Below are positions 31,525 through 31,693 of a DNA stretch of 64,000 nucleotides, piece by piece. The DNA comes from Escherichia coli O127:H6 str. E2348/69 (GTDB lineage: Bacteria > Pseudomonadota > Gammaproteobacteria > Enterobacterales > Enterobacteriaceae): the NCBI RefSeq assembly GCF_000026545.1, contig NC_011601.1; one strand, written 5' to 3'. The notes below the pieces were generated by a model, which saw only the letters and a program-made list of their open reading frames with translations, made no database searches and was not told the origin of the DNA. Both the position numbers and the translations under genes were made by a program. The first letter of the stretch is position 1. Every line of letters starts with the position of its first letter.

Positions 31525-31532
31525 AAATCTAC

Positions 31533-31693
31533 TCCAGAAAAAAGAGGGTAGCAGCGTTAACTGCTACCCTCGAAGATTGTTACCCAGCGTATTGCGGTTT
31601 TCAGGCCCGATGGGGAACGACCACCAGGCGTATAGTCTGTCCGTGCTACGTAACAATCGAGAGGGCTGGAATTTCCGCCCCTGGTTCTTGTAA
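31533..31693 (-). ncRNA. sroC: SroC-type sRNA region (gltI–gltJ intergenic; 3' end at hairpin plus U-tract)
   Basis: position between gltI stop and gltJ start; hairpin gagggtagcagcgttaactgctaccctc followed by T-run on - strand; 5' end not determinable. Confidence 0.4.

Follow-up and report, generated by a model that had tools for sequence, protein, structure and literature searches.

The gltI–gltJ spacer of Escherichia coli raises the question of whether a short intergenic stretch inside a transport operon encodes a transcription terminator alone, or an RNA with a function of its own. We addressed this question in a 64,000-nucleotide stretch of the E. coli O127:H6 str. E2348/69 genome (NC_011601.1), hereafter the window, to whose numbering the coordinates refer. 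The spacer (31525-31693) is 169 bp long and, on the minus strand, is bounded by the gltI stop codon (TAA, 31696-31694) and the gltJ start codon (ATG, 31524-31522), as placed from the sequence and its list of open reading frames. An initial annotation of the spacer had noted a GC-rich hairpin with a U-tract on the transcribed strand at its 3' side, had described these as an SroC-like terminator structure, and had remarked that the arrangement is the one that yields the mRNA-derived small RNA (sRNA) SroC.

On one side of the spacer, gltI (31694..32602, minus strand), whose mRNA is the parent of SroC, encodes a periplasmic glutamate/aspartate-binding protein of 302 residues; its assignment comes from RefSeq and from a 666-bit match of the product to the NCBIfam model for GltI-type glutamate/aspartate-binding proteins (NF008063). 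On the other side, gltJ (30784..31524, minus strand; open reading frame, and RefSeq annotation on identical DNA) encodes a permease and is the first gene downstream of the leaky terminator discussed below, to be reached by read-through; its Shine-Dalgarno sequence, GGAG, lies at 31535-31532, 3' of the SroC end. The operon is completed (29385..30784) by gltK (30110-30784, minus strand; GltK equivalog at 479 bits in NCBIfam, and RefSeq annotation) and by gltL (29385-30110, minus strand; from annotation), the gene order gltI, gltJ, gltK, gltL, then rihA being that of the RefSeq record of strain SK1144, whose DNA is identical here. In the list of open reading frames gltI appears with 325 residues from an in-frame ATG at 32671 (31694-32671, minus strand); the NCBIfam model and RefSeq place the start at residue 24 of this frame (ATG 32602, 302 residues), and the 23 extra codons, which fall within the C/A-rich leader targeted by the sRNA GcvB, are not coding. 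Upstream of gltI and divergent from it lies a 625-residue open reading frame (33056-34933, plus strand), for which the SK1144 annotation gives a rhomboid-family intramembrane serine protease; in K-12 MG1655 this place is taken by the insertion sequence IS5D, and the rhomboid gene is absent between gltI and lnt.

The gltI–gltJ region is almost certainly the gene for SroC, a 163-nt Hfq-dependent sRNA from the 3' end of the gltI mRNA, which we place at 31536..31698 on the minus strand from its Rfam match, its identity to the K-12 gene and its fold. In an Rfam scan of the whole window, the RF00369 covariance model aligns at 31698-31536 (minus strand) over its full length (model positions 1-163 of 163) with 172.6 bits (E = 2.5e-36) against a gathering score of 45, and alignment with the annotated sroC of K-12 MG1655 (b4763, 'small regulatory RNA SroC') gives 162 of 163 identical positions, or 185 of 186 columns with the flanks included. 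The sole difference from K-12, a G for an A at 31624, falls in the stem of SL2, where it turns an A-U into a G-U pair and thus keeps the pairing. Both comparisons had been proposed with the initial annotation, whose expectation of an SroC-yielding arrangement they bear out more strongly than it was put. As to its wording, a terminator structure is present, but the description was too modest, since the locus is the sroC gene itself and not the terminator alone; the interval given was exactly that of the spacer, but SroC begins at 31698, 5 nt inside gltI and 2 nt before the stop codon, and ends at 31536, so that the 11 nt at 31525-31535 lie outside it. The K-12 feature likewise overlaps the final 5 nt of gltI and stops 11 nt short of gltJ. 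What was to speak against SroC, a similarity confined to the hairpin, is the opposite of what was found: the whole RNA is similar, and the hairpin is the part of sroC that is least like the Rfam consensus, because the terminator stem of Escherichia is longer than that of most genera.

Nothing in the sequence speaks against this identity, and the gene is already known: sroC is a well-studied E. coli sRNA gene, curated in Rfam and annotated in K-12, which was first described in 2003 and whose mechanism was characterised in 2015. The RefSeq PGAP records of most E. coli genomes, for example that of SK1144, are without any feature in the gltI–gltJ spacer, so to readers of raw sequence and to pipelines it looks unannotated.

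Enterobacterial intergenic regions often hold dispersed repeats of the REP or ERIC type, with terminator-like palindromes, and the spacer might be taken for one of these. Copy number refutes this reading, to which we give next to no chance: the 163-nt sequence has 5431 occurrences spread over 5421 of the 5426 complete E. coli genomes, typically one in each (median 1), always lies between gltI and gltJ, and matches a curated single-locus RNA family (RF00369). Many of these genomes are 100% identical to the sroC of the window, which carries a common allele. The repeat reading has on its side that a few other species do have a repeat-like insertion inside the spacer. Four of the 78 sroC loci from other species (L017, L050, L063 and L078) hold 60-170 nt between SL2 and the terminator block, at L017:6817-7030, L050:1205-1420, L063:7772-7925 and L078:8375-8640 (in motif orientation, L078 being the reverse complement); three of the inserts (L017, L050 and L078) read like the ERIC/IRU enterobacterial repeat (GTGAATCCCCGGGAGC...ACTGGGGTGA). 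We considered these four loci as terminator-less truncated homologues like the Yersinia case and rejected this, since the terminator block, GGGTAGCGCTGCTACCC followed by T9, is kept downstream of the insertions.

One of these loci, L050, comes from a record titled 'Chryseobacterium sp. 18061' (CACSKA010000002.1), although its sroC is flanked by enterobacterial GltI and GltJ and it is nearly the same as L063, a locus of Citrobacter; the record seems to be either wrongly labelled or contaminated. Elsewhere in the window, the cspA thermoregulator family (RF01766) matches at 10487-10935 (plus strand) with 138.6 bits against a gathering score of 78; the match takes in the gene of a cold-shock protein together with its leader, and a terminator lies inside it at 10908-10935; from its genomic neighbourhood we take this gene to be probably cspE. 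Seven tRNA genes lie within 600 bp at 42159-42749 (minus strand; RF00005, 57-71 bits), presumably the E. coli metT-leuW-glnUW-metU-glnVX cluster, which they fit.

Within sroC itself, the hairpin is present as first described, towards the gltJ end of the spacer. It is a Rho-independent terminator common to the gltI mRNA and SroC (31544..31571, minus strand), supported by a terminator scan, by folding and by conservation, with a 12-bp stem (31571-31544) that includes 7 G-C pairs, a 4-nt UUAA loop and, directly after it, TTTTTTCT; a consensus scan found this one strong terminator-like site within the spacer, on the transcribed strand. Folded alone, the hairpin reaches -22.7 kcal/mol (z = -7.6), a stability matched by 0 of 200 shuffled sequences. 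Together with U6 it spans 31571-31538 (minus strand), and a terminator is thus predicted where SroC ends. The U-tract, UUUUUUCU (31536..31543, minus strand), forms the 3' end of SroC, its T-run is invariant across species, and by analogy with other Hfq-dependent sRNAs (PMC4474525) it is likely the Hfq-binding 3' tail.

The core of the stem, GGGUAGC/GCUACCC, is invariant in 74 species and is therefore conserved as sequence, without covariation, but stem length varies between genera: 12 bp and -22.7 kcal/mol in the Escherichia of the window versus 9 bp and -13.7 kcal/mol in Salmonella (locus L026, positions 272-305). Kluyvera has a similarly extended terminator and, by alignment, Citrobacter, Klebsiella and Enterobacter have short ones, the longer stem arising from an 8-9 nt insertion at the terminator loop. 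This difference may alter how often transcription continues into gltJKL and how much SroC is made.

A hairpin with a U-tract between a binding-protein gene and its permease genes may be read as an intra-operon attenuator and nothing else, one that sets the GltI:GltJKL ratio and releases an inert decay product. The literature lends this some substance, since the excess of GltI is ascribed to the leaky terminator of gltIJKL, an operon described as having a single promoter, a full-length mRNA and a monocistronic gltI mRNA (PMC4474525). As a complete account of the locus we nevertheless regard it as very improbable, in the first place because, across genera, the 125 nt preceding the terminator keep both their sequence and a covarying structure, neither of which a terminator on its own would require.

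The structure in question was derived by folding and then compared across species. The 174-nt region has a minimum free energy of -68.8 kcal/mol (z = -5.56) and forms SL1, then a long interrupted stem with SL2 and an internal bulge inside it, and finally the terminator. SL1 (31663..31680, minus strand; SroC 19-36) corresponds to helix 1, with 86.9% of cells paired and two pairs changed on both sides. The long interrupted stem (31575..31658, minus strand; SroC 41-124), which encloses the bulge and SL2, is made of helices 2-4, with 84-90% paired and eight pairs showing double-sided changes. SL2 (31605..31629, minus strand; SroC 70-94), which holds the K-12 difference at 31624, is helix 6 and the clearest of all, with 97.7% of cells paired and double-sided changes in five of its nine pairs. 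Helix 5, which is short and partly covers the bulge, is paired in just 61% across species, consistent with an accessible, open site at the bulge.

For this comparison, made without recourse to the Rfam model, a degenerate core motif was scanned over species-representative genomes, giving at least 80 loci from Salmonella, Citrobacter, Klebsiella, Raoultella, Enterobacter, Kosakonia, Kluyvera, Lelliottia, Trabulsiella, Mangrovibacter and others, with 77 different sequences across sroC; 73 of these loci and the window make up the alignment (74 sequences) onto which the fold of the window was projected. Standard pairs fill 89.6% of cells, as against 35-52% once each 3' partner is shifted by one to three columns, a comparison in which the fold, being taken from one member of the alignment, is favoured over its shifted versions. 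Changes on both sides occur in 17 pairs, and 233 cells carry them versus 87 +/- 8 in shuffles, none of 500 of which reaches either this count or the covariation score. That the fold comes from a single sequence is not enough to account for so large a difference or for the changes on both sides of pairs. Compensatory changes in 74 enterobacterial species thus support a conserved secondary structure of SroC, namely SL1, the long stem with SL2, and the terminator. Folding had also suggested an outer helix between SroC 15-18 and a CUGG past the U-tract, beside the gltJ Shine-Dalgarno sequence, which we considered as a cis element; its 4-nt complement is kept in 7 of 73 species and its column counts are poor, and we therefore rejected it as a by-product of including sequence past the 3' end in the fold.

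The same substitutions bear on the opposite strand, where the mechanical list of open reading frames contains a frame of 75 codons with a GTG start (31466-31693, plus strand) that might encode a small protein. We hold the chance of this to be vanishingly small: the cross-species substitutions follow the pattern of paired RNA stems, there are indels whose lengths are not divisible by three, the 8-9 nt terminator extension for one, the frame overlaps the gltJ start of the other strand, it carries no annotation in the RefSeq records of K-12 MG1655 and SK1144, and the consensus scan of 30700-33100 found no promoter-like site for it.

If the conserved RNA is SroC, it should carry the contacts with GcvB that have been mapped for SroC elsewhere. 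Miyakoshi, Chao and Vogel (PMC4474525) describe two SroC-GcvB duplexes of 7-8 nt, 14 nt apart, at the internal bulge and the tip of SL2, and proved the pairing by compensatory mutations (SroC C63G/C87G with GcvB G160C/G14C). Since the labels BS1 and BS2 are inconsistent between sections of that paper, we name the sites by position. Using the K-12 gcvB gene, as gcvB lies outside the window, we find both: the bulge site, GGACAGAC (31635..31642, minus strand; SroC 57-64), is an 8-nt perfect complement to GcvB 156-163 in the R3/SL4 region, and the SL2-tip site, UCGUUCC (31614..31620, minus strand; SroC 79-85), which occupies the 7-nt loop of SL2, is a 7-nt perfect complement to GcvB 13-19 in SL1. 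The two sites are exactly 14 nt apart, with C60 pairing to GcvB G160 and C84 to G14; with an offset of +3 to the Salmonella numbering, these are C63 and C87. That both sites are intact is a second point against a terminator whose released RNA is inert.

The weight of this result lies in the exact match to mapped sites and not in the length of the complements, because runs this long readily arise by chance: two runs of 7-8 nt against GcvB turn up in 23% of the dinucleotide shuffles of SroC, and the complementarity is not significant alone. Nor is the invariance of the sites in the alignment independent evidence, most of both sites having been fixed by the pattern used to retrieve the loci; the two free positions in GGAC-NN-AC are AG in 74 of 74 sequences, which adds little. 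Full-length RNAduplex runs of SroC with GcvB or MgrR force pairing end to end and give no site information. For MgrR, the only perfect run is one of 8 nt between SroC 98-105 and MgrR 87-94, inside the MgrR terminator, and is probably due to chance; the SroC-MgrR interaction was reportedly mapped by Acuna et al. in 2016.

GcvB also has a predicted contact with the parental mRNA. The 5' leader of gltI contains C/A-rich stretches (32646..32701, minus strand, comprising 32701-32691 and 32666-32646) in which 11 nt are perfectly complementary to GcvB 79-89 and 10 nt to GcvB 73-82, within the G/U-rich R1 seed, and the cluster at 32666-32646 lies 64-44 nt upstream of the gltI ATG. With gltIJKL described as a GcvB target (PMC4474525), these stretches are the predicted site at which GcvB represses the parental mRNA. 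Because gltI, which SroC would de-repress, itself carries an R1 target, the circuit has the form of a feed-forward loop, and with these complements the published loop is complete within the window on its SroC/gltI side.

Our analysis of the locus contributes the identity, position, terminator, fold, pairing sites and leader target, and for termination, processing, Hfq dependence and GcvB decay we rely on published experiments in Salmonella and E. coli K-12. From these, the gltIJKL operon would be transcribed from a single promoter, and the leaky Rho-independent terminator (31571-31536) would partly stop transcription to give a monocistronic gltI mRNA, with read-through giving the full gltIJKL mRNA. 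RNase E, guided by Hfq and dependent on a 5'-monophosphate, would then trim the gltI transcript to a very stable, Hfq-bound SroC. A consensus scan of 30700-33100 found no sigma-70-like promoter, which, as weak negative evidence, fits a processed rather than a primary SroC transcript; the sequence around 31698 neither clearly matches nor misses the short RNase E consensus. By pairing through GGACAGAC and UCGUUCC, SroC would expose GcvB to RNase E and itself survive, and with less GcvB many mRNAs of amino-acid transport and metabolism, that of gltI among them, would be de-repressed.

The steps of this scheme have been observed elsewhere. In Salmonella, the processing of SroC by RNase E is guided by Hfq and depends on a 5' phosphate, and SroC triggers the decay of GcvB and is not consumed (PMC4474525). 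In E. coli, the half-life of SroC exceeds 16 min, and SroC cuts that of GcvB from more than 16 min to approximately 4 min (PMC10250213). Also in E. coli, up to approximately 70% of GcvB reads in RIL-seq of stationary-phase cells are in chimeras with SroC (PMC9299463). This last result and the compensatory mutations (PMC4474525) demonstrate activity in trans, and point mutants of sroC in Salmonella that leave the terminator unchanged are reported to stabilise GcvB (PMC4474525), none of which agrees with an inert decay product. The attenuator role holds in addition to the sRNA role of SroC, not in its place.

Compared with known systems, the locus agrees with the SroC of K-12 (b4763) and of Salmonella Typhimurium in position, strand, the length of 163 nt, terminator, the two GcvB sites and fold. 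It differs from that of K-12 at the one base at 31624, where many E. coli share the allele of the window, and from that of Salmonella in its longer terminator. CpxQ, SdhX, NarS, OppZ and MalH are, like SroC, mRNA 3' ends released by RNase E, which use the terminator of the host gene and are without a promoter of their own (PMC9438474). Unlike these, SroC comes from the interior of an operon, with gltJKL downstream of it, and depends on a leaky internal terminator, and its main target is another sRNA, for which it acts as a sponge and decay trigger, and not an mRNA. The tRNA-spacer RNA 3'ETS-leuZ, acting on RyhB and RybB, is likewise a by-product RNA that lowers the activity of Hfq sRNAs. The chbBC spacer and ChiX present a similar pair, in that a by-product of another transcript pairs with an Hfq sRNA and lowers its activity; chbBC acts through the ChiX terminator and PNPase (PMC4474525), whereas SroC acts through RNase E cleavage at two distant sites and is not consumed.

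Two segments of SroC outside the GcvB sites are invariant or nearly so across the 74 species, namely 34-45 (CCCUCUCGAUUG, 31665-31654) and 121-136 (AAUCUUCGAGGGUAGC, 31578-31563), unlike the remaining stems, which vary freely with compensation. It is an unlikely suggestion that these segments carry a second function, either control in cis of read-through at the terminator or pairing with other partners; a possible role in termination control of conserved nucleotides outside the GcvB contacts was raised by the authors of PMC4474525. If such control exists, it would set both the gltI:gltJKL ratio and the output of SroC, and the 12-bp terminator of the Escherichia and Kluyvera clades would tune it differently from that of Salmonella.

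The overall results leave the known picture of SroC unchanged, and their importance is one of correct annotation only: a spacer left blank in most RefSeq records of E. coli is the source of an sRNA that ranks among the best-characterised sponges of enteric bacteria. Through GcvB, SroC ties glutamate/aspartate transport to a large regulon and affects growth on peptides (PMC4474525). Reports add that it down-regulates MgrR and represses flagellar mRNAs (PMC9438474), and through these, according to the literature, it affects lipopolysaccharide modification and motility.
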